Source: an uncultured Methanosarcinales archaeon (lineage in GTDB: Archaea > Nanobdellota > Nanobdellia > Woesearchaeales > CAYSVS01). Taken from it: a stretch of 64,000 nt of DNA. The position numbers were made by a program, and so were the translations under genes. The stretch covers positions 1 through 64,000 of the forward strand of contig CAZPRK010000005.1 in assembly GCA_964589485.1 (NCBI GenBank). Direction: 5' to 3'. A model generated the notes under the pieces. That model saw only the letters and a list, made by a program, of their open reading frames with translations, ran no database searches and was not told the origin of the DNA. Shown piece after piece: positions 84 to 57,837 of the stretch. The stretch's first letter is position 1; every line of letters starts with the position of its first letter.

Positions 84-1058
84 TTAACGCCAACAAACTT
101 CTACATCATCAGTTCTTTCATAAGGTCTAATACTTGAATCTTTTAATTTAACTCCACCTTTATGCATTTTCAAACCACACCATGCAATCATAGCTCCATT
201 GTCAATATTAAACTGATTAGGTAGAATAAAGCATTTAGCACCTCTTTCTTTACACATAGATTGAGCCATTTCTTGTAACCTTTTATTACAAGCAACTCCG
301 CCACCTAATAATAATTCTTTTTTATCACAGTGAGCTAACGCTCTTTCTGCAACTTCAATTAACATTGCGAAAACATATTCTTGTAAAGAATAACATAAAT
401 CTTCTTTTGACATTCCAGAATTAAATTTTTGTTTTAAATTAGTTAATATTCCACCTAAATTAATATCCATTCCTTTTACTGAATATGGAATCGTAATTAA
501 ATTTTTACTTTTCAAAGCCATTTCTTCTACTTTGGGTCCACCTGGAAATCCTAACCCTATACTTCTTGCGAAACTATCTAAAAAATTTCCAACTCCAATA
601 TCTAATGTTTCTCCAAAAATTCTATATTTTCCTGATTCAAATGCAATTACTTGAGTATTAACTCCTGAAACATATAACAATACTGGATCTTTTGCAGTTG
701 TTAACATATTACCAACTTCTAAATGCGCAATACAATGATTTACTCCAATTAAGGGTTTATTATATTTTAAACTTAAATAACGTGCAATAAAGTGTCCAAT
801 TCTTAATGCATGTCCTTGCCCAGGACCTTGAGAAAATGCTATAACGTCAATATCTTTAAATTTTAATTTAGCTTGATCTAAAGCTCTGTTAATCACATCG
901 TCGCATATTTCAACATGATGATCTGCTACTTTAGCAGGAATCATTCCACCTTTTTCAGTTGTAAATAATTCCCTTTCATTTGCCAATACTTTTTTATCAT
1001 GAGTTACAATTCCAACTCCAAATGTATGAGCAGTACTTTCTATACCTAGACATATCAT
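84..1058 (-). CDS. kae1: tRNA N6-threonylcarbamoyltransferase Kae1 (KEOPS)
   Basis: LGIESTAHTFGVG start, VNHCIAH metal motif, GETLDIGVGN, GGVACN and IDNGAMIAW motifs. Confidence 0.95.
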   Translation of the reverse strand: MICLGIESTAHTFGVGIVTHDKKVLANERELFTTEKGGMIPAKVADHHVEICDDVINRALDQAKLKFKDIDVIAFSQGPGQGHALRIGHFIARYLSLKYNKPLIGVNHCIAHLEVGNMLTTAKDPVLLYVSGVNTQVIAFESGKYRIFGETLDIGVGNFLDSFARSIGLGFPGGPKVEEMALKSKNLITIPYSVKGMDINLGGILTNLKQKFNSGMSKEDLCYSLQEYVFAMLIEVAERALAHCDKKELLLGGGVACNKRLQEMAQSMCKERGAKCFILPNQFNIDNGAMIAWCGLKMHKGGVKLKDSSIRPYERTDDVEVCWR

Positions 1059-1149: not shown

Positions 1150-1389
1150 ATGACAATTAAATATCTAATAGCGCTTTGGAAAGGCGAATATGAAGCAAAA
1201 TATGAAGTTTCAGATAGTCCTAATATGATGGCTGAAAAAGTTTGTGAAACAGTAGGTGCTACAATAGTTTATAGAGGAAATTTACTAAACCCAGAAGGCA
1301 TTGAAATAATTGAAAATTTCATAAAAGAAACTAATGAAATTGGTAAATTTGATCCAAAAGCACTAGAAAATAAGCTTAAAAAAGAATAA
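1150..1389 (+). CDS. hypothetical protein (79 aa)
   Basis: ORF with normal composition preceded by a TTTAAAT TATA-like box. Confidence 0.6.
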   Translation: MTIKYLIALWKGEYEAKYEVSDSPNMMAEKVCETVGATIVYRGNLLNPEGIEIIENFIKETNEIGKFDPKALENKLKKE

Positions 1390-1417
1390 CTTTTTTAAAC
1401 CCTGAAATCATACTATA

Positions 1418-3319
1418 TTGATGGTTTTTGATGATTTTATTAAAGAAGTAAAAAAATACAATCCAAATGCGAATTCTGATTTAATTAGAAAGGCTTATAA
1501 TTTTTCAAAAGAAGCACATAAAGGTCAAAAAAGAATTTCTGGGGATGATTATTTTGTTCATCCAGTAGGTGTAGCTGAAATTTTAATTAAATTGAGAGCA
1601 GATACTGCTACAATTTGTGCAGCTTTATTACATGATGTCCCTGAAGATACTAAAGTTACAATTAAAGAAATTGAAGAAAAATTCGGAAAAGAAATTGAAG
1701 ATTTAGTTCAAGGAATGACTAAATTTAAAAAAATTACATTTATAAAAAAAGAAGATTATAAAGCCGAAAATTATAGAAAAATATTATTAGCTAGTTCTAG
1801 AGATATTAGAGTTATGCTAATCAAATTAGCAGATAGATTACATAATATGAGAACATTAAAAGATTTAAGACCAGATAAACAAAAACGTATAGCTGAAGAA
1901 ACAATGACAGTATATGCACCAATTGCATATAAGTTAGGTGTAGGTTACATTAAGGGTGAATTAGAAGATTTAAGTTTAAGATATTTAGAACCAAAAGTAT
2001 ATCAATACTTAAAAGCTAAAATTTCAGAAAAAAGAGATGAAAGAGAAACTAAAACTCAAAACATTATAAAACAAATTAAATATTTAATTAAAAAAAATAA
2101 TATTCATGCTGAAGTTACAGGTAGAGCAAAATATTTCTATAGTATTTATCAAAAAATGAAAAAAGATAATAAAACTTTTAATGATATATTTGATTTAATT
2201 GCTGTAAGAATTATTACAGATACTCCTAAAAATTGTTATAGAGTTTTTGAATTAATTCATAATAAATGGGACCCTGATTTAGGAAGGTTCAAAGATTTTA
2301 TTGAAAACCCAAAACATAATGGATATCAATCATTACATACAACTGTTCTTGGTCCATATAATAAAAAGCTAGAAATCCAAGTAAGAACTAAAGATATGCA
2401 TGATTTTGCAGAGGAAGGTGTTGCTGCACATTGGAAATATAAAGGAACAGAAAAAGATAGAAAATTCGAAAAGAAAATTAGATGGATTAAACAATTACTT
2501 GACTGGAAAAGAACAAATAAAGATGCAATTGAAGTTATAGAAGATCTAAATATTGATTTATTTGCAAACGAAATTATAACGTTTACACCTTCAGGTGATC
2601 CTATTTCTCTCCCACTAAATGCAACTCCTGTTGACTTTGCATATGCAGTCCATACTAACCTTGGAAAAGAATGTAATCAAGCTAAAGTTAATGAAAAAAT
2701 TGTTCCTTTAGATTATCAATTAGATTCTGGGGATTTAGTTGAAATAATTACTAAAAAAAACTCTAAACCTAATAGACAATGGTTAAACTTTGTTAAATCA
2801 TCAATGGCTAAAGCTAAAATTAAACAAGCATTAGGAATGCCTCCAGAAAAACCAAAAAAAGATATCGATATAGATGAAAGAGAACAATTAATTCTTTCAG
2901 AACATATAGAAATAAAAGGAAAAAAATATCCACTTAAAATAAGTAAATGTTGTAAACCTAATAAAAAAAATAAAATTGTTGGTTTCTTAACAAAAGATAA
3001 AAAAATTACAGTACATAATCAAGAATGTTTTATCATGAAAAATGAAAAAAATAAAGTTGAATTAAATTGGATTAAACTTGAAGATAAATATGAAAAAGAA
3101 TTTGTAGTAGTTGCTAACGATACACCTGGTTTTATTAAAGAAGTTTTAAACGTAATCACTAGAGCAAAAGTTTTAATTAAATCTATTAATACAAGAAACT
3201 CAAAGGGACATATTGTTTTAGAATTAAAAGTTCATTCTACAGATGAATCTTTATTAAAAGATATTCTTAGAAAAATTAGAAGATTTCAAGAAAGTCTAGA
3301 TGTAAGATTAAAAAAATAA
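1418..3319 (+). CDS. rel: long RelA/SpoT homolog, bifunctional (p)ppGpp synthetase/hydrolase
   Basis: HD hydrolase (LLHDVPED, IKLADRLHNMRTL), synthetase (YSIYQKM, RFKD, NGYQSLHT, EIQVRT, AAHWKYK), TGS (TPVDFAYAVHT), SKCC zinc finger, ACT-like C-terminus. Confidence 0.93.
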   Translation: MMVFDDFIKEVKKYNPNANSDLIRKAYNFSKEAHKGQKRISGDDYFVHPVGVAEILIKLRADTATICAALLHDVPEDTKVTIKEIEEKFGKEIEDLVQGMTKFKKITFIKKEDYKAENYRKILLASSRDIRVMLIKLADRLHNMRTLKDLRPDKQKRIAEETMTVYAPIAYKLGVGYIKGELEDLSLRYLEPKVYQYLKAKISEKRDERETKTQNIIKQIKYLIKKNNIHAEVTGRAKYFYSIYQKMKKDNKTFNDIFDLIAVRIITDTPKNCYRVFELIHNKWDPDLGRFKDFIENPKHNGYQSLHTTVLGPYNKKLEIQVRTKDMHDFAEEGVAAHWKYKGTEKDRKFEKKIRWIKQLLDWKRTNKDAIEVIEDLNIDLFANEIITFTPSGDPISLPLNATPVDFAYAVHTNLGKECNQAKVNEKIVPLDYQLDSGDLVEIITKKNSKPNRQWLNFVKSSMAKAKIKQALGMPPEKPKKDIDIDEREQLILSEHIEIKGKKYPLKISKCCKPNKKNKIVGFLTKDKKITVHNQECFIMKNEKNKVELNWIKLEDKYEKEFVVVANDTPGFIKEVLNVITRAKVLIKSINTRNSKGHIVLELKVHSTDESLLKDILRKIRRFQESLDVRLKK

Positions 3320-3324
3320 AAAAA

Positions 3325-3849
3325 TTATTTGCTCTTAGATTCTTTAACTTCTTCCTTAGGAGTTTCTTCCTTAACAGGTTCAGCTTTAACTTCTTCCTTA
3401 GGAGTTTCTTCCTTAGCAGATTCAGCTTTAACTTCTTCCTTAACAGGTTCAGCTTTAACTTCTTCTTTAGGAGTTTCATCCTTAGCAGGTTCAGCTTTAA
3501 CTTCTTCCTTAGGAGCACCAGTAGTCTTAGCCTTCAAAGCTTTTAACTTATCTTTCACAGACTCTTCTTTAGGTTCTTCCTTAACTTCAGTTTTTTCAAT
3601 TTTGAATCCATCTAATTCAGCATAAACTTTTTCTTCATCTTTAAGAACGTTAACTTTTACATGATGAGGAGGATTTCTCATTCCTTTACTCCAGATTGCT
3701 TCATTAAGATGTTTTCCTATACTTAAATTAACACTCTTCATATGTTTAATTAAAAATTCTTTCAATGCTTTAATAGCTTTTTTAGCTCTTTTATATCTAG
3801 GAACTTTTAACCATTCTCTTCTTAAAGGTATATTATATGATCTTTCCAT
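3325..3849 (-). CDS. rpl31e: 50S ribosomal protein eL31 with repetitive acidic C-terminal tail
   Basis: ERSYNIPLR...PRYKRAKKAIK...NEAIWSKG..NPP motif; follows rps19e and rpl39e. Confidence 0.93.
   Translation of the reverse strand: MERSYNIPLRREWLKVPRYKRAKKAIKALKEFLIKHMKSVNLSIGKHLNEAIWSKGMRNPPHHVKVNVLKDEEKVYAELDGFKIEKTEVKEEPKEESVKDKLKALKAKTTGAPKEEVKAEPAKDETPKEEVKAEPVKEEVKAESAKEETPKEEVKAEPVKEETPKEEVKESKSK
3335..3515 (-). repeat. in-frame tandem repeats encoding (P)KEEVKAE(P/S)(A/V)K(E/D)ET in the eL31 tail
   Basis: Repeated ttcagctttaacttcttc units on the + strand. Confidence 0.85.
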
Positions 3850-6317: not shown

Positions 6318-7655
6318 TTAGGGTTCATAACGTAAAGCAGTTCTAGGAAACGCAATTGCATCTTTAATTGTTTCTAATCCACATATCCATGAAATAATTC
6401 TTTCAACTCCTAACCCGAAACCTCCATGAGGAATACTTCCATACCTTCGAGTATCTAAATAAAATTCATAATCTTTAAGGTCTTCTCCTTGATCTTTTAA
6501 CCTTTTTTTCAATTTATCTAAATCTTCTTCTCTTTGACTTCCACCTATAATTTCACCATACCCTTCAGGAGCAATAAAATCACATCCTTGAACAGCTTTA
6601 GGATTCCCTTCAACTTCTTTCATGTAGAAAGCTTTAACTTTAGTAGGGTAATTAGAAACAATTATTGGAACGTCATATAATTGACTTAATTTATCTTCTT
6701 CAATTGTTCGTAAATCTTTTCCCCATTCAACTTTCATTTTACATTTTTTATCAAGAATTTTTAAAGCTTCATCATATGTCATTCTTACAAATTTTTTCTT
6801 AGCTGTAGGTTCTAATTTACTTAAATCTCTTCCCAATAATTTTAATTCATTTTTATTATTTTTTAAAACATTTTTCATTACATGTTTTAATAACCCTTCA
6901 CCATAATCTTTAATTTTTTCAAAGTTACTCCATGCCAATTCCATTTCAGCATGCCAATATTCAGTTAAATGCCTGGAAGTTTTACTATTTTCAGCTCTAA
7001 AACTTGGAGCAATAGTATATATTTTTTCCAACCCAAAAATTCCAGCTTCTGCATGTAATTGCCATGTTTGAGCTAAAAATAACTTTTTACCAAAATAATT
7101 TACTTCAAATAAAGATGATCCTCCTTCACATTGTGAAGACATAAACACAGGAGAATGATATTCAAAAAAACCTTGACTTCTAAAATATTCATGAATTGCT
7201 CCAAAAACTGTACTTCTTATTTTTAATATTGCAACCATTTTCCTAGACCTAATCCATAAATGCCTTTTATCTGCAAGAAGTTCTGGACTTTGATCTTTTC
7301 CAATTGGAAATTCGTTACTAGAACCAATAATTTCAATATCAGAAACGTGAACTTCGTATCCAGTAGGAGCTCTTGCTTCTTTTTTAATTTCGCCAACAAT
7401 ACGTAAACTAGCTTCTATTTGTATTTTATCTACTTCTGAAAATTTTTCTTCACCAACTTTATCTTTAGATATAACACATTGAACAATATTAGAGGAATCA
7501 CGTAAATTTATAAATTTTAATTTGTTACTACCTCTTTCACGATGTACCCAACCAAGTAATTCTACTTTACCCTTTCCTTTATCCATTGCATCTTGAATTG
7601 ACATTTTTTTAAGCATAATTAGATAAATAAAAGAATTCTTTTTAAACTTTTTCAA
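6318..7655 (-). CDS. asnS: asparagine--tRNA ligase (true start probably a downstream Met)
   Basis: OB fold (LRDSS), RHLWIRS, EGGSSLF, FRAENSKTSRHLTEYWHAEME, GEIIGGSQRE, PHGGFGLGVER. Confidence 0.9.
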   Translation of the reverse strand: MKKFKKNSFIYLIMLKKMSIQDAMDKGKGKVELLGWVHRERGSNKLKFINLRDSSNIVQCVISKDKVGEEKFSEVDKIQIEASLRIVGEIKKEARAPTGYEVHVSDIEIIGSSNEFPIGKDQSPELLADKRHLWIRSRKMVAILKIRSTVFGAIHEYFRSQGFFEYHSPVFMSSQCEGGSSLFEVNYFGKKLFLAQTWQLHAEAGIFGLEKIYTIAPSFRAENSKTSRHLTEYWHAEMELAWSNFEKIKDYGEGLLKHVMKNVLKNNKNELKLLGRDLSKLEPTAKKKFVRMTYDEALKILDKKCKMKVEWGKDLRTIEEDKLSQLYDVPIIVSNYPTKVKAFYMKEVEGNPKAVQGCDFIAPEGYGEIIGGSQREEDLDKLKKRLKDQGEDLKDYEFYLDTRRYGSIPHGGFGLGVERIISWICGLETIKDAIAFPRTALRYEP

Positions 7656-10602: not shown

Positions 10603-12279
10603 CTAATACTTAATCCCTAACTCTTTCAACATTTCTTTATCTGGCTTGCTAGGACATTCATCCATTGGATTTTCCATTGCTTTATTTTTAGGGAAGGCAA
10701 TTACTTCTCTGATATCGTTAGTATTACATAACATTGCAATTAATCTGTCAAATCCAAACGCTATGCCACCATGCGGTGGAGCTCCATACTTGAAAGAATT
10801 TAATAAAAATCCAAATGCTTTCTCAGCTTGTTTAAAACTCATCCCTATTACTTCTAAAACTTTTTCTTGAACATCTTTTTGATGAATCCTGATACTTCCA
10901 CCACCAAGTTCAGTTCCATTCAATACTAAATCATGTAAATAACCAGTAACTAATCCTGGTTTAGAAAAATCCATTTGCATTGGCATTGAAAAAATGTGAT
11001 GCATTGGTTTCCACTTACCTTCATCTTCTTCAAATAAAGGAAATTCAGTAACCCAAACAAATTCTAACTTTTTATCATCATATAGCTTTAATTCTTTTCC
11101 AAAATGTAACCTTAAGTGAGCTAACGCATCATTACAAACTTTATAAGTATCTGCAACTAAAAACATAGTTTCGCCTTTTTTTATTTTAGTAGCTTTAATT
11201 AAATTACTTTTAACTTCATCAGATAAAAATTTTGCAACTGGTCCTTCTAAAGTTTTTTCATATTTCAAATAAACTAAACCTTTTGCATTATAAGTTTTAA
11301 CAAAGTCAGTTAATTTATCACATTCCTTTCTTGAAAATTCCTTAGGAGCAACAATAGCTTTAACTAAATCTGCATGAAACACTTTAAAATCACTTTCTTT
11401 AACAACTTCTGTAACATCTACTAATTTCATGTCAAACCTTAAATCAGGCCTATCTATTCCATAGTTGCTCATTGCATCACAATAAGTCATTCTTCTAAAA
11501 GGAGTTTTTAATTTAACATTTTTAACTTTTTCAAATATATGTTTAACCAAATCTTCACCTAACTTAATAATGTCATCTTGTTCAACAAAACTCATTTCAA
11601 TATCAATCTGAGTAAATTCAGGTTGTCTATCTTGTCTTAGGTCTTCATCTCTAAGACATTTAGCTATTTGATAATATTTATCTACACCTGCAACCATTGA
11701 AATTTGTTTATACAATTGCGGACTTTGAGGAAGAGAATATACACTTCCATTATGTAACCTTGAAGGAACAATAAAATCTCTAGCACCCTCAGGTGTACTT
11801 CTAATCAATAAAGGAGTTTCAATATGTAAAAAATCATGCTTATCCATAAACTCATGAACTGCGATTGTAGCTTTATGTCTTGCTTTAACATTAGATAAAT
11901 TTTGTCTTAAATCTAAATATCTATATTTTAATCTTGTATCTTCATTACTTTCAACTTGTCCTGACATATCAATAGGAAGGTTATCACATTCATTAAGAAT
12001 ATTAATTTTCTCACAAACAATTTCAATTTCGCCAGTTTTTATATTTTTATTTACAATCCCTTTAGGTCTTTTCACAACTTTTCCTTGAATTTGTACAACA
12101 GATTCTTCTTTTAAATCAACTTTATCTTTAAAAACAATCTGAGTTATTCCATATCTATCTTTTAAGTTAGTAAAAGAAATCCCACCATGTTCTCTAACGC
12201 CATTAACCCATCCACATAAAGTTACTTTCTTACCTACATGTTTCAAAGTTAATTCGTTACAAGTATGAGTTCTAAGCAT
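10603..12279 (-). CDS. aspS: aspartate--tRNA ligase, bacterial type (with GAD insertion)
   Basis: MLRTHTC start, RLKYRYLDLR, STPEGARDF, LPQSPQLYKQ, DRQPEFTQID, GGGSIRIH, GAPPHGGIAFGFDR. Confidence 0.93.
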   Translation of the reverse strand: MLRTHTCNELTLKHVGKKVTLCGWVNGVREHGGISFTNLKDRYGITQIVFKDKVDLKEESVVQIQGKVVKRPKGIVNKNIKTGEIEIVCEKINILNECDNLPIDMSGQVESNEDTRLKYRYLDLRQNLSNVKARHKATIAVHEFMDKHDFLHIETPLLIRSTPEGARDFIVPSRLHNGSVYSLPQSPQLYKQISMVAGVDKYYQIAKCLRDEDLRQDRQPEFTQIDIEMSFVEQDDIIKLGEDLVKHIFEKVKNVKLKTPFRRMTYCDAMSNYGIDRPDLRFDMKLVDVTEVVKESDFKVFHADLVKAIVAPKEFSRKECDKLTDFVKTYNAKGLVYLKYEKTLEGPVAKFLSDEVKSNLIKATKIKKGETMFLVADTYKVCNDALAHLRLHFGKELKLYDDKKLEFVWVTEFPLFEEDEGKWKPMHHIFSMPMQMDFSKPGLVTGYLHDLVLNGTELGGGSIRIHQKDVQEKVLEVIGMSFKQAEKAFGFLLNSFKYGAPPHGGIAFGFDRLIAMLCNTNDIREVIAFPKNKAMENPMDECPSKPDKEMLKELGIKY

Positions 12280-24252: not shown

Positions 24253-24393
24253 ATGACATATAAGTGCAGCCATTGTAGTAGAAGATCAGAAGAAGAAGAA
24301 GAATGCTGCGGCGAAACTATGAATAAAGAGGAAGAAGAAGAATTAGAAAACGATGATTATAATCTCTCACAATATAGTGATGAAGATGATTAA
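24253..24393 (+). CDS. small Cys-rich acidic protein, desulforedoxin-like (46 aa, not in ORF track)
   Basis: MTYKCSHCSRRSEEEEECCGETMNKEEEEELENDDYNLSQYSDEDD, with GGAGGTG at 24240-24246. Confidence 0.7.
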   Translation: MTYKCSHCSRRSEEEEECCGETMNKEEEEELENDDYNLSQYSDEDD

Positions 24394-25334
24394 ATTTCAA
24401 AAATTAAATCTTTAGCTTTTTTTTCATTAAATAAAATATCATAAACCCCATTAAGAATTGGAAGATTCAAATCAGATAAACTATAAACTATTTTTGAAGT
24501 AGTTACACCTTCTGCAATCATAGTCATTTCTCCTAAAATTTCATTTAAATCTTTCCCTTTACCTAATTCTTCACCAACATGTCTATTTCTACTATGTTGA
24601 CTTGTACAAGTTACAATAATATCACCTAATCCAGATAAACCATAAAAAGTTTCATCCTTAGCTCCTAAATAAACCCCTAAAGTTTTAATTTCTTCTAAAC
24701 CTTTAGTGATTACATAAGCTTTAGTGTTATCTCCTAAACCTAACCCATGAATAACGCCAATCATAATTGCTAAAATATTTTTTAATGCACTCCCTAAAGA
24801 AACACCTAAAGGATCGTCACTTACACTTAATTTCAAATCAGAATCTTGAATATAATGTTTAGCCTTAACTGCAATTTCTTTATCTTCAGATGCAATAACA
24901 GCTCCAGATAAACATGCATCTGCAACTTCTTCTGCATGCATCGGTCCTCCGATTACACAAACTTTATTTGGTAATTTTTCTTGAATAACTTTGTATAAAG
25001 GTTGTTTAGTTTCTTCACAAAAACCCTTTGAACAATTTACAATAATAACATTTTCAGGTATAAATTTTTTCACTTTATCAATAGTTTGAGAAACAACATT
25101 ACTAGGCAATGCAACTAAAACTAATTCTACACCTTTTAATGAAGCTTCGATATCATTATAAAATTTAACGTTAAAGGGAACTCTTACTTTTGACAACAAA
25201 TCATTGATTCTACTAAAATTAACTTTTTCTACTCTTTCTTTAGAATATTCCCATACTTTAACATCATGTTGTTTAGATAAATGTATTGCTAATGCAGTTC
25301 CGAAACTCCCACCACCTAATATAGTTACTTTCAT
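24390..25334 (-). CDS. gpsA: NAD(P)H-dependent glycerol-3-phosphate dehydrogenase
   Basis: GGGSFGTALA, SKG, GPMHAEEV, ALKNILAI, GLSGLGDIIVTCTSQHSRN, AEGV. Confidence 0.93.
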   Translation of the reverse strand: MKVTILGGGSFGTALAIHLSKQHDVKVWEYSKERVEKVNFSRINDLLSKVRVPFNVKFYNDIEASLKGVELVLVALPSNVVSQTIDKVKKFIPENVIIVNCSKGFCEETKQPLYKVIQEKLPNKVCVIGGPMHAEEVADACLSGAVIASEDKEIAVKAKHYIQDSDLKLSVSDDPLGVSLGSALKNILAIMIGVIHGLGLGDNTKAYVITKGLEEIKTLGVYLGAKDETFYGLSGLGDIIVTCTSQHSRNRHVGEELGKGKDLNEILGEMTMIAEGVTTSKIVYSLSDLNLPILNGVYDILFNEKKAKDLIFEI

Positions 25335-25369: not shown

Positions 25370-26437
25370 CTACTTATTAAACCAATCGTCAAAGAAACCT
25401 TTTTTTTTCTTTTCATCGAATTCTTTAATTAAATCTTTTTGTTTTTTAGTTAACTTTTCAGGAACTTGTAAAATAACTCTAACATTTTGATCTCCTGAAC
25501 CATAACCTTCTAATGAAGGCATACCTTTTCCTTTAATTCTAAATATAGTATGAGTTTGAGTTCCAGATGGAATTTTCAATTTAGTTTTTCCATTTATAGT
25601 AGGTACTTCTACTTCACTTCCCAATGCAGCTTGACCAAAAGTAATAGGAACATCAATTGAAAGATTATCACCTTCCCTAGTAAATAATTCATGATCACGA
25701 ACATGAATTATAATGTATAAATTTCCTGTTGAACCACCTAACTCACCAGCTTCTCCTTCACCCATAACTCTTAACCTAGTTCCAGTATCAGCTCCCGCAG
25801 GAATATTAACATCTAATTTTCTATTATTATGAACTCTTCCTTCGCCTTCACAAAAGTCACAATATTCAGTTATTATTTTACCTTGTCCTTTACATGTTCT
25901 ACAAGTTGCAGTTGTTGCAAATATTCCAAAAACTGTTCTTTTTTGTTCTCTTACTACACCTTGTCCATTACAATCTTGACAAGTTTTTACATCTGAACTA
26001 GTTTTAGCTCCAGACCCTGAACATTTATCACATTCTTCCATACGCGGAATAACTACAGTTTTTTCTACGCCACTAAATGCTTCTTCAAGTGTAATTTCTA
26101 AATCAAGTCTTAAATCACTTCCTCTAGATTGTCCACGAGATCTATTATTTCCCCCGCCAAAAAAAGTTCCAAATAAATCTTCAAAATCAAAACCACCAAA
26201 ATCAAACCCTTGAAACCCAGAAGTATCAGCTGTTCCAAATTTATCAAATTGTTGTCTTTTTTGATCATCACCTAATATAGCTGCAGCTTCATTAATCTCT
26301 TTAAATTTAGCTTCAGAGCCAGCATCTTTGTTAATATCAGGATGATATTTTTTTGCCAACTTTTTGTATGCCTTTTTGATTTCATCTTTAGATGCGTCCT
26401 TTCCCACACCTAAAACTTCATAATAATCTTTAGTCAT
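25370..26437 (-). CDS. dnaJ: chaperone DnaJ
   Basis: HPD J-domain, G/F region, four CxxCxGxG motifs. Confidence 0.96.
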
Positions 26438-26495
26438 ATTTTACACTTCATTTGGTTCTTTTTTAAAACTTACTAAAAAAAAAAATAAAAAAAAG

Positions 26496-28343
26496 TTATT
26501 TCTTTTCTTTATCAGTTACAGTTTCATCTTTCTTTTCTTCATCTACAACTTCTGCGTCAACTACTGTTTCATCTTTTTTAGAATCTTTCTTAGTTTCAGC
26601 TTCTTTTGCAGCTTGTTGATACATTTCAGTTGTGATAGCCTGAACTTTAGTATTTAACTCTTCCATTTTCTTTTTCAGAGCTTCAATATCTTTCTTTTCA
26701 GGTTCCATCAACTTCTTCAAGTCTTCAACTAAAGGTTTAACTTCATCAAGCTTTTTCTTATCAACTTTATCACCCATGTCTTTAAACATTTTTTCAGATG
26801 TAAAAATTAAAGAATCTGCTTGATTAATTACTTCTGCTTCTTCCTTCTTAGTTTTATCTTCGTCAGCGTGCGCTTCAGCATCTTTTTTCATTTTTTCAAC
26901 TTCTTCGTCAGATAAATTTGTACTTGAAGTTAATGTAATTTTTTGTTCCTTGTTAGTTCCTAAATCTTTTGCACTAACATTAACAATTCCATTTGCATCA
27001 ATGTCAAAAGTTACTTCAATTTGAGGCACACCTCTTGGTGCTGGCGGAATTCCCACTAAATCAAACTGTCCTAACAAATTGTTATCAACAAACATACTTC
27101 TTTCACCTTGAGCAACTCTAATTGTTACTGCTGGTTGATTATCTGCAGCTGTTGAAAAAGTTTGACTTTTCTTTGTTGGTATGGTTGTATTTTTCTCAAT
27201 CAATTTAGTAAATACTCCACCCAAAGTTTCAATCCCAAGACTTAAAGGAGTTACATCAAGTAAAAGTACATCCTTAACATCTCCACCTAAAATTCCAGCT
27301 TGAATAGCGGCTCCCATTGCAACTGCTTCATCAGGATTAACACTTTTATCTCCATCTTTTCCTGAAATTTCTTTAACTAAATTCTGAACTGCAGGAATTC
27401 TTGTAGATCCTCCAACGAATATAACTTTATCAATGTCACTTGCTTTCATTTTAGCATCTTCTAAAGCTTGAATTGTTGGTTGTTTTAACTTATCTAAAAT
27501 ATCTCCAATAAGTTTTTCAAACTCAGCTCTTGATAAATTTACATTCAAATGTTTAGGTCCCGAAGCATCAGCTGTAATAAATGGAACATTTATTGTAGTT
27601 GATGTTTTAGTAGATAATTCTATTTTAGCTTTTTCTGCAGCTTCTTTTAACCTTTGCAAAGCCATGTTATCTTTCCTAATGTCAATTCCATTATCTTGTT
27701 TAAACTTATCAGCTAACCAATCAATAATAATTTCATCAACATCATCTCCACCTAAATGACTACTTCCTTTAGTTGATTTAACTTCAAAGACACCATCACC
27801 AAGTTCTAAAATTGATACATCAAAAGTTCCACCACCAAAATCAAAAACTAAAATGGTATGATCATTTCCTTTATCTAATCCATATGCTAAACTTGCTGCA
27901 GTTGGTTCATTAATAATCCTTTCTACATTTAAACCAGCAATTTTCCCTGCATCTTTTGTAGCTTGTCTTTGGCCATCATTAAAATAAGCAGGCACAGTAA
28001 TAACTGCATCAGTTACTTTAGTTCCTAAGTAAGCTTCAGCATCAGATTTTAATTTCTGTAAAGTAATTGCTGAAATTTCTTGCGGAGTGTATTCCTTTCC
28101 ATCAATTGTTACTTTAAAATCTTCACCCATATGACGTTTAATACTTCGTACAACGTGATCAGGATTAGTAATGGCTTGATTTCTAGCCACTTGACCTACT
28201 GTTCGTTCACCATCTTTAATCAATACAACACTCGGAGTTGTTCTTCCACCCTCTGCGTTAGGTATAATTGTTGGTTTACCACCTTCCATTACTGCTACAG
28301 CGGAAAAAGTGGTTCCTAAATCTATTCCTATTGTTTTTCCCAT
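26496..28343 (-). CDS. dnaK: chaperone DnaK (Hsp70)
   Basis: [35 protein letters not shown]. Confidence 0.97.
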
Positions 28344-28348
28344 TTTTA

Positions 28349-28888
28349 TCATTCCTCCACGAATTTTATGTTTTGTTTTTCGATTCCGTGCTCAGTTAAT
28401 ATTTGAGCAGCGGTTTTTTTGGTTGTTTGAGTAATATCTAACCCAAGCAAGTCCAAACCATCTTTCACCCTTTTTTCATCAGACGCTTCAATTTCCAAAT
28501 ACGTTGGAAGGCCTGGATAACTATCAAGTTCAAATCTTATATCTTTGAAAACATAACTTGTCCTAAATTTTTCATGAAAACTTTTTTCTTTAATTCCAAT
28601 TAAATTCAAAATTTTAATCAAATTAGGATCATTTGAAAGTTTAAATTCAATTTCTTCTCTAACTTTAAATTCAGAATTTTCTGGCTTTCCCTTAAAAGTT
28701 AAAACAGTTTCATTTCCTGAGTTAACTATTCTTAATAATTCATCATTTTTTGAAATTCTACCATCATCAAAATCAAATTTTATAGACGCTAATTTCCCAT
28801 CAAATACTTTTTTAGCTCCAATGGATTCTAATTTAGATATAATTTTTTCTTTATCCACGTCCAAAACTTTAATTTCAATTTCTTTCAT
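28349..28888 (-). CDS. CYTH family protein (class IV adenylate cyclase-like triphosphatase)
   Basis: EIEIK, LTFKG, REEIE, KFRTSY, YLEIE. Confidence 0.85.
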
Positions 28889-29463
28889 TGCAATTCCTCC
28901 AAAGACATTACATCAGTTCCTAAATGTTTAGCACTAAACCCTGCAGTCTTTGCTTTCATAACTTCAATTAAACTATCACTTACAACCATACTTTCCTCTG
29001 GTTTAATATTAGTAGATTGAGATAATTCGCTCCAATATTCACTATGATCTTTATTGAAGTTTGAATCTTCAAAAGCCCAAATTACATCAACATAAGTTAT
29101 CAAATCATTAAAAGCTAAAAAAAGTTCAACAATTTTTCTATGAGAACTTGTCACCACTACTATTTTTGTATTATTTGACTTTAAAGATTTTAATAAAGAT
29201 TTAATTCCACTTTTAAAAATACTTTCAGTAATAAAACCAGGTAATATGTCATAATATAAATCCAATACATCTAATTTTAAACATAACTGGTAAGTATCTA
29301 CTAACCCAAGCTTATTTTTGGGTAATTCATTAACAATATCGTTAATTTCTTTTTCAGACTTTACTTTACTTATAGCTTTAATTATTGCAGGGTATACTCT
29401 ACTATAAACACTTTCATCAATCAAAGTTCCATCAAAGTCAAATATCCAATTTTCGTATTTCAT
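28885..29463 (-). CDS. HAD family hydrolase
   Basis: IFDFDGTL, VVTSS motifs. Confidence 0.85.
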   Translation of the reverse strand: MKYENWIFDFDGTLIDESVYSRVYPAIIKAISKVKSEKEINDIVNELPKNKLGLVDTYQLCLKLDVLDLYYDILPGFITESIFKSGIKSLLKSLKSNNTKIVVVTSSHRKIVELFLAFNDLITYVDVIWAFEDSNFNKDHSEYWSELSQSTNIKPEESMVVSDSLIEVMKAKTAGFSAKHLGTDVMSLEELQ

Positions 29464-29939
29464 TTTTCATCCACCATCTTTTTCAAATCAACTACATCAA
29501 GCGTTTTACCGCCAGCTTTTAAATATTCAGCAAATTGCCTCATACTTTCAGGATCATTCTTATTTACAAAATGATTCAATGTAAACCATAAGGATAACTT
29601 TTCACCCTTAGATGAACATGTCCCTACTTTACATTGTAAAGGTTTTACTTCATGTATGCCACACCCCATATCTTCTTTCAAAAAAACACATGGACCAAAA
29701 GGCATATTCGGATTTTTTCTATTCATTTTTGGTCTAAATAAAGTAGTATTGAATTTTTCTATTGTTTCCAAATATTTACTTTCTAATTCTTCTTCACTAA
29801 TTCCCAAAAATTTTGCAATATTTTTTTTATCATCTCCAACTAAACATCCAGTTCCATATAAACAACAATGAACACATCCTGTTCTACAATCTTTTCCTAA
29901 TTCCAAGACTGTTTTTATGTCAGTATTTTTATCAATCAT
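29460..29939 (-). CDS. YkgJ (CxxCxxCC) Fe-S/Zn cluster protein
   Basis: CRTGCVHCC...PCVFL...CGIHEVKPLQC. Confidence 0.85.
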   Translation of the reverse strand: MIDKNTDIKTVLELGKDCRTGCVHCCLYGTGCLVGDDKKNIAKFLGISEEELESKYLETIEKFNTTLFRPKMNRKNPNMPFGPCVFLKEDMGCGIHEVKPLQCKVGTCSSKGEKLSLWFTLNHFVNKNDPESMRQFAEYLKAGGKTLDVVDLKKMVDEK

Positions 29940-30400
29940 TTTTTATTTATTTTTACTTTAGCATGCCTCAAAACTTTATCTCCCAACATAAATCCTTTTT
30001 GTAAATTTTCAAGTATTAGTTCATTTTCTTTATCATCATGTTTTTCTGTTAACAAAGCTTCATGTAAATTTGGATTAAATTGACTATTTTCAGTATCCAT
30101 TGGTTTTAACCCTTCATCTTCCAAGACTTGAAAAAATTGACTATAAATTAACTCCATTCCTTTAATGAATTCTTCATTTTTATCTTTATTATTAAAAGCC
30201 AATTCAAAACTATCAAGTAAAGGTAATAATTTCAATATTAGCTCTTTATTTGCTGTTATGATCAATTCTTTTCTTTGAGTTTCAATTCTTGTTCTATAAT
30301 TTTCAAATTCAGCCTGATTTCTCTTTAATAAATCAGTCATTTCAATTAATTCTTGCTCTTTACTAGGCTTTTCTTCTTTTTTTGATTTTTCCTTGCTCAC
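29936..30400 (-). CDS. grpE: nucleotide exchange factor GrpE
   Basis: QAEFENYR, LLPLLDSFE, FNPNLHEA, QKGF.LGDKVLRHAKV. Confidence 0.95.
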   Translation of the reverse strand: MSKEKSKKEEKPSKEQELIEMTDLLKRNQAEFENYRTRIETQRKELIITANKELILKLLPLLDSFELAFNNKDKNEEFIKGMELIYSQFFQVLEDEGLKPMDTENSQFNPNLHEALLTEKHDDKENELILENLQKGFMLGDKVLRHAKVKINKK

Positions 30401-31380: not shown

Positions 31381-32436
31381 ATGAACTTAGAATATCTTAA
31401 TTTAGTGTTTGGAAATAATACATTACAAGCATATTCATATGCTTTAATCGCGTTCTTTATTTCATACATAATCTTAAAATTCTTCAGATATAGCATATTA
31501 ACTAGACTAGAAAAATTAGCCAAAAAAACAAATACAGAAATAGATGATGTTCTAATAAGCGCAATTAAAGGATTACATGGGTTTTTTTATTTTTTATTAA
31601 GTTTATTCATTGCAATTCAACAATTAGTTGTTCCACAAATACTTACAAAAGTTATACTTTACTTATTAAACATCCTTATTGTGTATTACATTGCAAGCGG
31701 TATAAGTTTATTCATAACTAAAACTACTAGTAAAATTGTAAAAAAGAAAGAAAAAGAAGATCAAATAGATGACATCCCAAGTATTGAATTAATAGGGAAA
31801 GCTTCAAAGGCAATACTTTGGCTTTTCGCAACAGTTTTATTATTATCCAACCTTGGTTATGATGTTTCTACTTTAATTGCAGGGTTAGGAATATCTGGAA
31901 TTGCAATTGCGTTTGCTTTACAAAACATATTAAGCGACATTTTCGCATCTTTCTCTATACATTTTGATAAACCATTCCAAAAAGGAGATTACATAGTTAT
32001 AGGAACAGATTCAGGAACAGTTGAAAAAATAGGAATTAAATCAACTAGAATAAAAACTTTGCAAGGTCAAGAGTTAGTTGTTTCAAATAAAGAATTAACT
32101 ACAACAAGAGTTAATAATTATAAAAAAATGGAAAAAAGAAGAATTGTATTTAACATAGGAGTTACTTATGATACTTCTTCAACAAAACTAGAAAAAATAC
32201 CTAATTTAGTCACAAATATTATTAAAAATCAAAAGTTAGCTGAACCAGACAGAGTTCACTTTAATAATTTTGGAGACTTTAGTTTAGGTTTTGAAATAGT
32301 ATACTACATGCTAGATAGCGATTATACAGTTTATATGGACACTCAAGAAAAAATTAATTTAGATATTAAGAAAGCTTTTGAAAAAGAAAAAATCGAAATG
32401 GCTTTCCCAACTCAAACAATACATATCCAGAAATGA
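31381..32436 (+). CDS. mscS: small-conductance mechanosensitive channel
   Basis: AGLGISGIAIAFALQ, DKPFQKGD, GTVEKIGIKST, AFPTQTIH. Confidence 0.92.
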   Translation: MNLEYLNLVFGNNTLQAYSYALIAFFISYIILKFFRYSILTRLEKLAKKTNTEIDDVLISAIKGLHGFFYFLLSLFIAIQQLVVPQILTKVILYLLNILIVYYIASGISLFITKTTSKIVKKKEKEDQIDDIPSIELIGKASKAILWLFATVLLLSNLGYDVSTLIAGLGISGIAIAFALQNILSDIFASFSIHFDKPFQKGDYIVIGTDSGTVEKIGIKSTRIKTLQGQELVVSNKELTTTRVNNYKKMEKRRIVFNIGVTYDTSSTKLEKIPNLVTNIIKNQKLAEPDRVHFNNFGDFSLGFEIVYYMLDSDYTVYMDTQEKINLDIKKAFEKEKIEMAFPTQTIHIQK

Positions 32437-33011
32437 TAAAAAAATTTGTTAAGAAAGAATTAATCAATGCCGAAAAAGGTCACGATTATAAACATGCCAT
32501 AAGAGTTCTAAAATACGCACAAATAATACAAAATAAAGAAGGCGGAGATTTAAATATTATAGAAGCAGCTGCATTATTACATGACGTTGCAGATTCTAAA
32601 TTTAATAATGAAGAAAAACAGGTTAAAAAGATAGAAGATATTCTAAAAGAAAATAAAAATGAAATTCTACATATTATTAAAAATATAAGTTTTAGAAAAA
32701 AATATGAAGGTAAAAAATCACTTGAATTTCAAATAGTTCAAGATGCAGACATATTAGATGCAATAGGAGCCATAGGTATTGCAAGATCATTTAATTACGG
32801 TGGATACATTAATTTACCAATACATGATAAAAAAATAAAAATAAACCCAGATTATAAACCCACTACAACTATAAATCACTTCCATGAAAAATTATTATTA
32901 CTAAAAGATAAATTAAATACTGAAACTGCAAAAAAAATTGCAGAAAGTAAACATGAATTTATGCTTAAATTTTTAGAAGAGTTCCATAAAGATTGGAATG
33001 TCGAGTACTAA
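32433..33011 (+). CDS. HD domain phosphohydrolase
   Basis: GHDYKH, ALLHD, VQDADILDAIGAIGIAR, HFHEKLL. Confidence 0.9.
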   Translation: MIKKFVKKELINAEKGHDYKHAIRVLKYAQIIQNKEGGDLNIIEAAALLHDVADSKFNNEEKQVKKIEDILKENKNEILHIIKNISFRKKYEGKKSLEFQIVQDADILDAIGAIGIARSFNYGGYINLPIHDKKIKINPDYKPTTTINHFHEKLLLLKDKLNTETAKKIAESKHEFMLKFLEEFHKDWNVEY

Positions 33012-41405: not shown

Positions 41406-42890
41406 ATGGAAGACGAAAATAAGTTAATTAAAGAAAGAAAAGACAAATTAGCTAGAATTAGAGAATTAAACATAGATCCTTATCCATATAACTTTGATGT
41501 TAAACATAAGTCTTCAGAATTATTGGAAAAATTTGATAAATTAAAGCCAGAAGAACATTCTAAATCAAAAGCAATTATAGCTGGAAGAATTATGCAAGTT
41601 AGAAAAATGGGAAAAGCTGCTTTTGCTCACATCCAAGATGATACTGGAAAAATTCAAATTTATTTTAGAAAAGATGATTTAGGAGAAAAATTTGCTTTAT
41701 TTAAATTACTAGATATAGGAGATATAATTGGTGTTGAAGGTTCAATATTTAAAACTAAAACTGGAGAAGTAACAATTTATGCTAAAGGCTTACAAATTCT
41801 ATGTAAATCATTAAGACCTTTCCCAGAAAAATACCATGGATTAAAAGATGAAGAAATAAGATATAGAAAAAGGTATTTAGATTTAACCATGAATCCAGAA
41901 ATTAAAGAAATATTCAAAAAAAAATCAAAAATAATCTCAAAAATAAGACAATTTTTAGATAATAAAGAATTCGTTGAAGTTCAAACTCCAATTTTACAAA
42001 CTCAATACGGAGGAGCAAATGCAAGACCTTTTGTTACACATATAAATGCATGGGATATGAAAATGTATTTAAAAATTGCACCAGAGTTATATTTGAAAAA
42101 ATTACTTATTGGTGGAATGGAAAAAGTCTATGATTTAAATTATAGTTTTAGAAATGAAGGAAGTGATAAAACACATAATCCTGAATTTTTAATGGTAGAA
42201 TATTATTGGGCATATGCAGACAGAGAAAAAATAATAGAAATGACTGAAGAACTTTGGGAATGGGTTGCAAAAGAAGTTAATGGAAGTACTAAAATTAAAA
42301 TTAATGGAAATACTATAGACTTCAAAAGACCTTGGAAAAGATTTACAATGAAAGAAGCTTTAGTTAAACATGCAAAAATTAATATAGATAAATTAAATGA
42401 TAAAGAAATTCAAGATATAATGAGAGGATATAATGTTGAATACGAAGGTGATTTTGACAGAAATGTTGCAATGACACTTCTATTTGAAGAATTAGTTGAA
42501 GATAAATTAATACAACCAACTCACATATTAGACCATCCTTCTATAACTACACCATTATGCAAAAAAACAAAATATGATGATGATTTAGTTGAAAGAACTG
42601 AATTTTATGTTAATGGATGGGAATGTGGAAATGGGTATAGTGAATTAAACGACCCAGTAAAACAAAGAGAATTGTTTCAAGCTCAAGTAGAAAAAGGAAG
42701 AGGCGGAGATGAAGAAGCTCATCCTATGGATGAAGAATTTATTGAAGCCATGGAATATGGTATGCCTCCTGCCGGCGGACTTGGATTTGGCATAGATAGG
42801 ATGTGTATATTATTTACTGAAGTTTACAGTATAAGAGATATTATACTTTTTCCGACAATGAAACCTAAAGAGGAAAACAAAAATGACTAA
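41406..42890 (+). CDS. lysS: lysine--tRNA ligase, class II
   Basis: DPYP, RKMGKAAF, RYRKRYLDL, GGANARPF, APELYLK, FRNEG..KTHNPEF, EYGMPPAGGLGFGIDR. Confidence 0.95.
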   Translation: MEDENKLIKERKDKLARIRELNIDPYPYNFDVKHKSSELLEKFDKLKPEEHSKSKAIIAGRIMQVRKMGKAAFAHIQDDTGKIQIYFRKDDLGEKFALFKLLDIGDIIGVEGSIFKTKTGEVTIYAKGLQILCKSLRPFPEKYHGLKDEEIRYRKRYLDLTMNPEIKEIFKKKSKIISKIRQFLDNKEFVEVQTPILQTQYGGANARPFVTHINAWDMKMYLKIAPELYLKKLLIGGMEKVYDLNYSFRNEGSDKTHNPEFLMVEYYWAYADREKIIEMTEELWEWVAKEVNGSTKIKINGNTIDFKRPWKRFTMKEALVKHAKINIDKLNDKEIQDIMRGYNVEYEGDFDRNVAMTLLFEELVEDKLIQPTHILDHPSITTPLCKKTKYDDDLVERTEFYVNGWECGNGYSELNDPVKQRELFQAQVEKGRGGDEEAHPMDEEFIEAMEYGMPPAGGLGFGIDRMCILFTEVYSIRDIILFPTMKPKEENKND

Positions 42891-56905: not shown

Positions 56906-57118
56906 TTAAGATTTAACAACTACTTTTATTTTTTTCAATTTAGAATCAGGTGATTTCATATTAACTAAAGTAAATTCTTTTAGTTTTAATTTATCTGCAT
57001 AAACTTTCGCAGCTTCTTCTGTCTTAAAAGTTTTATCTCTAGGTTTTCTTTTTCTACTTATACTTAAACTTCTAGGTCCGCCTCTTTTTCTATCTCGAAT
57101 TCTAACATGATTACTCAT
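56906..57118 (-). CDS. small basic protein coupled to rpl11
   Basis: Arg/Lys-rich 70 aa; ATG overlaps the rpl11 stop (ATGA). Confidence 0.7.
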   Translation of the reverse strand: MSNHVRIRDRKRGGPRSLSISRKRKPRDKTFKTEEAAKVYADKLKLKEFTLVNMKSPDSKLKKIKVVVKS

Positions 57119-57837
57119 TTTTGCTCCTCTTCAGGCTTCTTTTCTTCAGCAGGAAGCATTGGTTCAAATACTGCAGATGGAATTTCTGCTTCAATCATTT
57201 TAGCTTTAACCTCATTTCTAGATTTTCCTTCCATTTTACTTAAAACTTCTTTAGCTTGAGCTTCAAATTCACTTCGTTTCTTTTCAAGATCTTCTTGTAA
57301 TTTTTTCTTTTCAGCTTCAACTTCTTTCATTTCTTCTGCACTTAATTCTGTTTTTTCTTCTTTAATTTCTTTATCGAACTTACCTGAATTAATTTGATTA
57401 ATAGCTTCACTAGGTTCTTCACCCTCTACATTAACACCCATGCTTCTACATGTTCCTATTATTTCTTTAATTTTTTGTTTTAAGTCCTTACCTAAAAGAG
57501 AATCTTCTTTCATTTTTGCAATTTTAATTAATTGCTCTATCTTTAAATCTGCAACTTTATCAGTTTGAGGAACTCCGCTTCCTTTTTGTATACCCGCTTC
57601 TTTTTTAATCAAAGCAGATGCAGGAGGCGTACCAACAGTAATATCGAAATCTTTTGTCTCAGTGTCAATACTTACTTTAACTGGAACTTGCATTCCTTTA
57701 AAATCAGCAGTTTTTTTATTTATTTGACTTACAACTTCACCAATATTTACACCCATTGGACCTAACGCAGGTCCTAGAGGAGGAGCCGCTGTAGCCTTAC
57801 CACCTTCAATCAAAACTTCAATATTTTCTTTAGCCAT
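57115..57837 (-). CDS. rpl11: 50S ribosomal protein uL11 with charged C-terminal extension
   Basis: GGKATAAPPLGPALGP, FKGMQVPV, GTPPASALI, GTCRSMGV. Confidence 0.95.
   Translation of the reverse strand: MAKENIEVLIEGGKATAAPPLGPALGPMGVNIGEVVSQINKKTADFKGMQVPVKVSIDTETKDFDITVGTPPASALIKKEAGIQKGSGVPQTDKVADLKIEQLIKIAKMKEDSLLGKDLKQKIKEIIGTCRSMGVNVEGEEPSEAINQINSGKFDKEIKEEKTELSAEEMKEVEAEKKKLQEDLEKKRSEFEAQAKEVLSKMEGKSRNEVKAKMIEAEIPSAVFEPMLPAEEKKPEEEQK

Follow-up and report, generated by a model that had tools for sequence, protein, structure and literature searches.

The stretch of DNA analysed (the window, 64 kb) is the first part of contig C5 of an archaeal genome of 1.16 Mb in 23 contigs, with an estimated completeness of 99.9 % and contamination of 0.74 %. 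Close to its start, a single open reading frame on the plus strand (1418–3319) encodes a long RelA/SpoT homologue (RSH) of 633 aa when read from a TTG codon. An identical copy in the sequence database (P0001) has 632 aa, which fits initiation at the ATG at 1421; residue numbers used here count from the TTG at 1418. There is one long RSH in the whole genome. The features identified at the locus are as follows.

84–1058, minus strand: kae1, the divergent neighbour (TIGR03722, 458.6 bits, cut-off 375)
1391–1399, plus strand: TATA-box-like run TTTTTTAAA, approximately 22–30 nt before the ATG, read directly in DNA of 28 % G+C
1421–3319, plus strand: coding sequence of the long RelA/SpoT homologue, 632 aa from the ATG at 1421 (633 aa from the in-frame TTG at 1418)
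1493–1942, plus strand: HD (p)ppGpp hydrolase domain, residues 26–175 (Pfam HD_4, E 3.9e-49)
2120–2452, plus strand: RelA_SpoT synthetase domain, residues 235–345 (Pfam, E 2.7e-41)
2576–2752, plus strand: TGS domain, residues 387–445 (Pfam, E 5e-18)
2831–2905, plus strand: residual linker, residues 472–496, at the site of the bacterial Helical (alpha-helical) domain (alignment and model)
2906–3070, plus strand: zinc-finger domain (ZFD/RIS/CC), residues 497–551, with C511, C512, H533 and C537 (alignment and model)
3086–3301, plus strand: ACT/RRM domain, residues 557–628 (Pfam ACT_4, 33.9 bits, cut-off 27; model)

To the right of the RSH gene are genes for the ribosomal proteins L31e (77.2 bits, cut-off 68) and S19e (177.6 bits, cut-off 156), and farther along the window are those for an Spt5-NGN protein adjoining L11, TYW3, a RadA/Rad51-like protein, and an S-layer protein. 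The archaeal gene setting (kae1 and rpl31e) described in the initial annotation is therefore supported, with scores over the family cut-offs for Kae1, L31e, and S19e. The run TTTTTTAAA would fit an archaeal promoter giving a leaderless mRNA and is put forward as a candidate only. A small reading frame, orf79 (1150–1389), was considered as a partner gene and rejected, there being no counterpart in 21 related loci and no Pfam match. Nothing was detected at the Rfam gathering threshold within the 64-kb window.

Intact HD, RxKD-type synthetase, TGS, CC zinc-finger, and ACT domains had been claimed for the 633 aa protein, and Pfam, the NCBIfam model TIGR00691 (spoT_relA; 666.3 bits, cut-off 499.2), and motif alignment all agree on this point. 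With five domains in one 633-aa frame, the protein does not belong to the class of single-domain small alarmone synthetases and hydrolases. It also scores below the E. coli-type equivalog models for RelA (NF008124, 403.6 against 728) and SpoT (NF008303, 552.2 against 947). The Helical domain typical of bacterial Rel, RelA, and SpoT is absent from the RSH. This domain sits outside the HD-SYNTH-TGS-ACT definition of a long RSH used by Atkinson. The AlphaFold2 model, built on 132 sequences, has a pLDDT of 84.7 and a pTM of 0.78, and shows a beta-alpha-beta-beta-alpha-beta fold for the ACT/RRM domain. By fold, the model is best matched to ribosome-bound RelA (70S, 5iqr_8, E 2.1e-39), to Rel of B. 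subtilis, and to full-length SpoT, the last of these (7qpr) having the highest whole-chain TM-score among the matches listed (TMq 0.50–0.51). An alignment of the N-terminal region to B. subtilis Rel (6yxa) extends over 489 residues (E 5.8e-142).

Using E. coli SpoT and RelA from NC_000913.3 as alignment partners, the HD motif is located at H48, H72-D73, E76-D77, D139, and N143. The synthetase motifs are at R236, K238, D259, R290-F-K292-D293, Y303-Q-S-x-H307, and E319-x-Q321; the TGS motif is DFAY-x-x-H412, in which DFAY is residues 406–409; and the zinc ligands are Cys-Cys-His-Cys, at C511, C512, H533, and C537. Because RFKD is present at 290–293 where E. coli RelA has EFDD, the designation as RxKD-type was correct. 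Roles of the individual HD residues (His-Asp, metal ligands) are presumably those assigned from work on RelSeq. In alignments, D259 is equivalent to D264 of B. subtilis, and H412, the counterpart of the residue that stacks on the 3′ CCA end of tRNA, is equivalent to H420 of B. subtilis and H432 of E. coli; the roles of D264 and H420 in B. subtilis Rel are as described in the available text of PMC7797070.

Within the clade to which this RSH belongs, the hydrolase residues H48, H72, D139, and N143 are present in all 132 members, as is each of the synthetase residues R236, K238, D259, D293, Y303, S305, H307, E319, and Q321, the TGS residues D406, F407, and H412, and the four zinc ligands C511, C512, H533, and C537. 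D73 and E76 of the HD domain are kept in 131 of the 132. The mean frequency of the top residue across the clade is 0.76 in the TGS domain, 0.75 in the synthetase, and 0.73 in HD, making the TGS domain equal in conservation to the catalytic domains; the ACT/RRM domain is poorly conserved (0.44). The aligned residues show that both catalytic centres, the histidine that reads the CCA end, and the zinc ligands are under purifying selection throughout the clade.

The linker between the TGS domain and the zinc finger had been noted as shortened, and the shortening is real. When compared to mycobacterial Rel (8fr8_I), residues 12–472 align with 79–547 of the chain and residues 506–602 with 661–762; residues 472–506 thus span 547–661 of the chain, with approximately 80 residues fewer in the RSH. 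Likewise, positions ~463–545 of TIGR00691 are unmatched in the RSH and among the related-genome matches listed. The distance from DFAY to CC is bimodal in 272 sequences, being 100–119 in 128 and 160–199 in 108, with other distances in 17 and the motif pair absent in 19. In a 94-row alignment, the segment from TGS to zinc finger is 34–42 aa in all 18 DPANN genome loci and 34–43 aa in all 16 short-form representatives, whereas it is 95–128 aa in all 31 named bacterial rows (29 of the 80 listed loci plus E. coli RelA and SpoT), the bacterial outgroup having been chosen at no more than three per phylum-and-class pair and from proteins of 690–800 aa only. The Helical domain is therefore missing in this RSH clade. 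What is left at 472–496 varies from 20 to 34 aa within the clade and ranks with the least conserved parts of the protein (mean top-residue frequency 0.37); in the AlphaFold2 model it is a disordered stretch and one 10-residue helix (485–494) between the helix at the end of TGS (462–471) and the zinc-finger strands.

Other short-linker forms exist outside the clade, for example P0258, which has a 16-aa linker and is on a 4.19-Mb contig. Since these short forms are scattered among long ones, shortening has happened more than once. The 34–43 aa form, as aligned here, is a single group in the present tree. No mention of Helical-domain loss in these archaeal RSHs was found in the literature, and the clade-wide deletion is a modest architectural variant, apparently unreported.

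The best 120 of 7998 scored homologues have 615–683 aa and 50–75 % identity, and the nine of these with legible names are all archaeal (four Woesearchaeota, three Nanoarchaeota, one Nanoarchaeia, and one Thermoproteota). In a sample of nearly one genome per family of the order, 51 out of 151 genomes have a TIGR00691 match over the cut-off, or 51 out of 148 when the unpublished-flagged genomes G112, G121, and G132, all with weak matches, are excluded. In a phylum-wide sample, 56 out of 151 genomes are over the cut-off and 60 have a match at E ≤ 1e-60; 48 of these 60 belong to the same order, counting the genome of the window, and 12 to the same class. None of the four archaeal control genomes and all ten of the bacterial control genomes are over the cut-off. 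The archaeal controls below it include Sulfolobus acidocaldarius and Haloferax volcanii. As 100 of the 151 genomes of the order are without a match over the cut-off, the gene is dispensable.

The phylogenetic tree was made with IQ-TREE (short search, LG+C20) from 449 columns, using only residues 20–467 of the query, through the helix after TGS, so that the linker indel was excluded. All 34 short-form rows (18 DPANN genome loci and 16 representatives) are on one side of a branch with an SH-aLRT support of 93. Among them, five 'same class' loci and one locus of the order (L014) make up a starred sub-clade, and the remaining loci of the order make up a second (support 94). The backbone among the bacterial phyla is without resolution in the LG+C20 tree and clade support is 93 (<95), so that the tree proves neither which bacteria were the donor nor that there was a single origin. 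A donor from the CPR was dropped as a candidate: FastTree had set eight long-form representatives beside the archaeal clade, which the LG+C20 tree did not recover. One of these eight, P0228, clusters with a protein named Candidatus Abawacabacteria (CPR bacterium). The history of the gene may have been a single ancient transfer, from bacteria, of a long RSH to the ancestor of the archaeal class, early loss of the Helical domain in the archaeal lineage, and mostly vertical descent with frequent loss afterwards.

Long RSHs are typically bacterial and contig C5 begins only 1.4 kb away from this gene, both of which would suit an assembly chimera or contamination, in which a bacterial gene has been joined to the end of an archaeal contig. 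However, the genes on both sides are archaeal, and the composition and codon use of the RSH gene are like those of its neighbours: its G+C is 0.252 and GC3 0.093, against a window mean G+C of 0.283, and the correlation between its codon frequencies and those of 12 further genes is r = 0.92, the range of those genes themselves being 0.69–0.94. Although rpl31e is beside the RSH gene in none of the 21 related loci, kae1 is head-to-head with it in eight, all of the same order. In addition, contigs from individual marine/seawater metagenome runs bridge both junctions. In run X1, a 3346-nt contig spans 26–3371 with zero differences. Run X1 is possibly the source sample. In runs X3 and X4, a 1292-nt contig spans 568–1859, from kae1 into the RSH gene, and contigs at 2719–3371 and 2885–3371 begin within the RSH gene and extend 47 nt into rpl31e, all with no difference. 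Among the sequencing runs listed as containing the stretch there is no RNA run. Because X3 and X4 share contig sizes and are perhaps one data set, these bridging contigs represent up to three samples, of which at most two are independent beside the possible source. The legible names among the best 120 homologues, archaeal in all nine cases, also speak against a bacterial contaminant. Given the archaeal flanks, the composition, the bridging contigs, and the kae1 pairing, a chimera or contaminant is very unlikely, to the point of being scarcely credible; with regard to coverage across the gene boundaries, which had been suggested as a check, the chimera is refuted as far as contigs allow. From its motifs, flanks, codon use, and bridging contigs, the gene is intact, native to the archaeal chromosome, and of bacterial type, as had been claimed.

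Based on the sequence, it is probable that the RSH is a functional and bifunctional Rel-type (p)ppGpp synthetase/hydrolase, native to this DPANN archaeon. Judging by the nearest homologues that carry a name, the host is probably Woesearchaeales-like. The fold could have been kept for other chemistry or another role, such as synthesis of (p)ppApp, hydrolysis chiefly for scavenging, or a non-alarmone function. Guanylate kinase and HGPRT are the classic Firmicute-type (p)ppGpp targets, and neither (PF00625 and TIGR01203, respectively) was found in the genome by profile search, which would be in keeping with such a change of role. Yet every examined residue in the two catalytic centres agrees with bifunctional Rel, the N-terminal region is 45–46 % identical to that of Rel from B. 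subtilis and S. aureus, and the archaea that have been tested for (p)ppGpp (Haloferax and Sulfolobus) are not DPANN, the control genomes of H. volcanii and S. acidocaldarius being below the cut-off here; a changed role is quite improbable. It is unlikely, to a lesser degree, that the RSH is active off the ribosome, being SpoT-like, hydrolase-dominant, or regulated by metabolites or proteins, with a C-terminus for autoinhibition or ligand sensing. This would account for the clade-wide absence of the Helical domain, which B. subtilis Rel needs together with TGS for stable and specific tRNA binding, the TGS domain alone giving no stable tRNA complex and TGS-Helical binding tRNA with an EC50 of 0.8 µM in an H420-dependent manner (PMC7797070, available text); an enzyme that has lost this domain could thus be badly impaired in tRNA sensing. 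The compact model (pTM 0.78), with SpoT 7qpr at the top by whole-chain TM-score among the matches listed, and the variable ACT/RRM domain (0.44) are consistent with activity off the ribosome as well. Set against this, D406, F407, and H412 are present in 132 of 132 clade members, the TGS domain is conserved like the catalytic domains, and none of the zinc ligands varies. In bacteria, TGS and the zinc finger are the parts that read tRNA and, as generally understood, dock on the ribosome.

Adaptation of the RSH to an archaeal ribosome, as suggested in the initial annotation, may be envisaged from the TGS histidine, the zinc finger, and the clade-wide Helical loss. As a bifunctional Rel-type enzyme, the RSH would by default hydrolyse (p)ppGpp when off the ribosome. 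The zinc-finger and ACT/RRM domains would dock it at the vacant A site of the archaeal ribosome, where TGS would read the free 3′ CCA of deacylated tRNA via H412, switching on synthesis, and the activated enzyme would move pyrophosphate from ATP to GTP or GDP. In bacterial enzymes, the ZFD and RRM domains bind between the ribosomal subunits, at the A-site finger. The A-site finger is reported to be crucial for RelA (PMC5829649, available text). Locking of the tRNA without a Helical domain would probably be weaker than in bacteria, or other contacts would supply it; likewise, from the B. subtilis TGS-Helical data, the archaeal RSH would have to hold tRNA differently or more weakly, or else use the ribosome alone. 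As for downstream targets, the best guess is GTPases of translation or of ribosome assembly. A hibernation-factor-like match in the genome is below the cut-off (21 bits), with no Pfam match at 1e-5. Taken as a whole, the proposal that a large DPANN clade runs a true stringent response, in which Rel docks in the archaeal A site, reads deacylated tRNA by TGS alone without a Helical domain, and makes (p)ppGpp that throttles translational or ribosome-assembly GTPases, is tentative, being plausible rather than probable.

Archaea are generally considered to be without a (p)ppGpp response. The lack of long RSHs has been named as an archaeal trait (Atkinson 2011, PMC3153485), and a review of archaeal signalling describes (p)ppGpp as undescribed in archaea (PMC10249747). 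Archaeal long RSHs are absent from the available text of a 2019 preprint with an updated RSH classification (10.1101/575399), the supplementary tables of which may list them. A comparative genomics study from 2021 reported RelA/SpoT in 41.7 % of Woesearchaeota and also in other DPANN, with predicted bacterial acquisition (PMC8407392); in its available text, presence and predicted bacterial origin are given and domain architecture is not addressed. GenBank annotates such genes as 'bifunctional (p)ppGpp synthetase/hydrolase [Candidatus Woesearchaeota archaeon]'. The novelty implied initially was thus overstated, RelA/SpoT in Woesearchaeota and DPANN having been both published, going by the accessible portion of PMC8407392, and annotated. 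This RSH gene is one more member of a known DPANN family and its presence is not news. Besides PMC8407392, the literature search on DPANN lineages together with alarmones or the stringent response found no paper on these genes.

Approximately one-third of the sampled genomes of the order keep an intact Rel, with catalytic and tRNA-sensing residues conserved, while reviews give (p)ppGpp as undescribed in archaea. The short-form clade is therefore a ready test case for an archaeal stringent response, and use of (p)ppGpp by archaea is made directly testable by a clade-wide Helical-deleted Rel. For the Helical domain, which in bacterial work is needed for stable tRNA binding, the clade also amounts to a deletion experiment made by nature. 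If the proposal is true, alarmone signalling would have been shown in Archaea for the first time, and the enzyme would represent a minimal, naturally occurring design for a stringent factor that depends on the ribosome.

Compared with known systems, the RSH is of the same family and clade as the DPANN RelA/SpoT reported in PMC8407392, with nothing essential different from what the available text of that study describes. E. coli RelA and SpoT have the same domain order, with identities of 33 % to RelA and 39 % to SpoT, although RelA has a dead HD domain and EFDD instead of RFKD, whereas the HD and RFKD motifs are intact in the archaeal RSH. RelA and SpoT also each possess a complete Helical domain (96 and 113 aa), which the archaeal RSH is without. 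It is shorter, at ~632 aa, than the ~690–800 aa of the named bacterial rows used, these having been chosen at 690–800 aa. With Rel of the Bacillota (B. subtilis, 6YXA and 6HTQ; S. equisimilis RelSeq, 1VJ7) it shares HD, the RxKD synthetase, the CCA-stacking histidine of TGS, the zinc finger, and ACT/RRM, and its N-terminal region is 45 % identical. Unlike Bacillota Rel, however, the archaeal RSH has the Helical domain cut to a variable linker of 20–34 aa, and its host is an archaeon with an archaeal ribosome.

One small ORF was found in the interval between kae1 and the long RelA/SpoT homologue (RSH) gene.

Window 1150-1389, + strand: 79-aa ORF between kae1 and the RSH gene

Pfam gives no match for this ORF, and a counterpart is absent from the 21 related RSH-gene loci. 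In the same-genus genome of locus L015 the spacing between kae1 and the RSH gene is only ~36 bp, therefore the ORF is either an insertion or spurious. Within the RSH gene, the marine metagenome runs X3 and X4 each contain one contig that links window 1854 to 2417, omitting 562 nt, a length not divisible by three. This join has only 28 letters on its shorter side, under the rule of 31 letters, and the contig may therefore originate from another organism or from a repeat.

The window also has an HD-domain protein gene that adjoins an MscS channel gene.

Window 32433-33011, + strand: generic HD-domain protein, 192 aa (PF01966, E 2.9e-13)

Since it is not among the matches when the genome is searched for the RSH family, this protein is no evident small alarmone hydrolase. 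Short HD-only frames (~160-300 aa), and some synthetase-only frames, match parts of the RSH model in many of the sampled genomes of the order, suggesting that small alarmone hydrolase-like or synthetase-like genes may be common in the order. A weak match to a ribosome hibernation factor family (PF02482) lies on another contig.

G000:C6:45206-45373 (L107:1363-1674), + strand in locus L107: 103-aa ORF, weak PF02482 match

The match scores 21 bits, under the cut-off of 23.7, and Pfam gives nothing at 1e-5 when this ORF is scanned alone.

The RSH gene is not alone, there being further bacterial-looking genes on the same contig.

Window 10603-12279, - strand: AspRS with GAD domain
Window 24390-25334, - strand: GpsA with 'bacterial GPD' C-terminal domain
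Window 25370-30400, - strand: DnaJ-DnaK-CYTH-HAD-GrpE run
Window 41406-42890, + strand: class II LysRS-like synthetase

Class IIb synthetases number three in the window, with 6318-7655 included. No Rfam family, tRNAs included, reaches the gathering score across the whole window (1-64000).

Two ribosomal proteins extend beyond their Pfam matches.

Window 3325-3849, - strand: ribosomal protein L31e, 174 aa, Pfam match at residues 3-69 only
Window 57115-57837, - strand: ribosomal protein uL11, 240 aa, Pfam domains ending at residue 137

The remainder of L31e is a K/E/P-rich repeat tail, and two antisense ORFs, 3276-3518 and 3329-3625, both arise from this repeat. Likewise, uL11 continues after residue 137 for ~100 K/E-rich residues, and this odd tail may be of interest beside the RSH gene, because activation of RelA in E. 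coli needs uL11.
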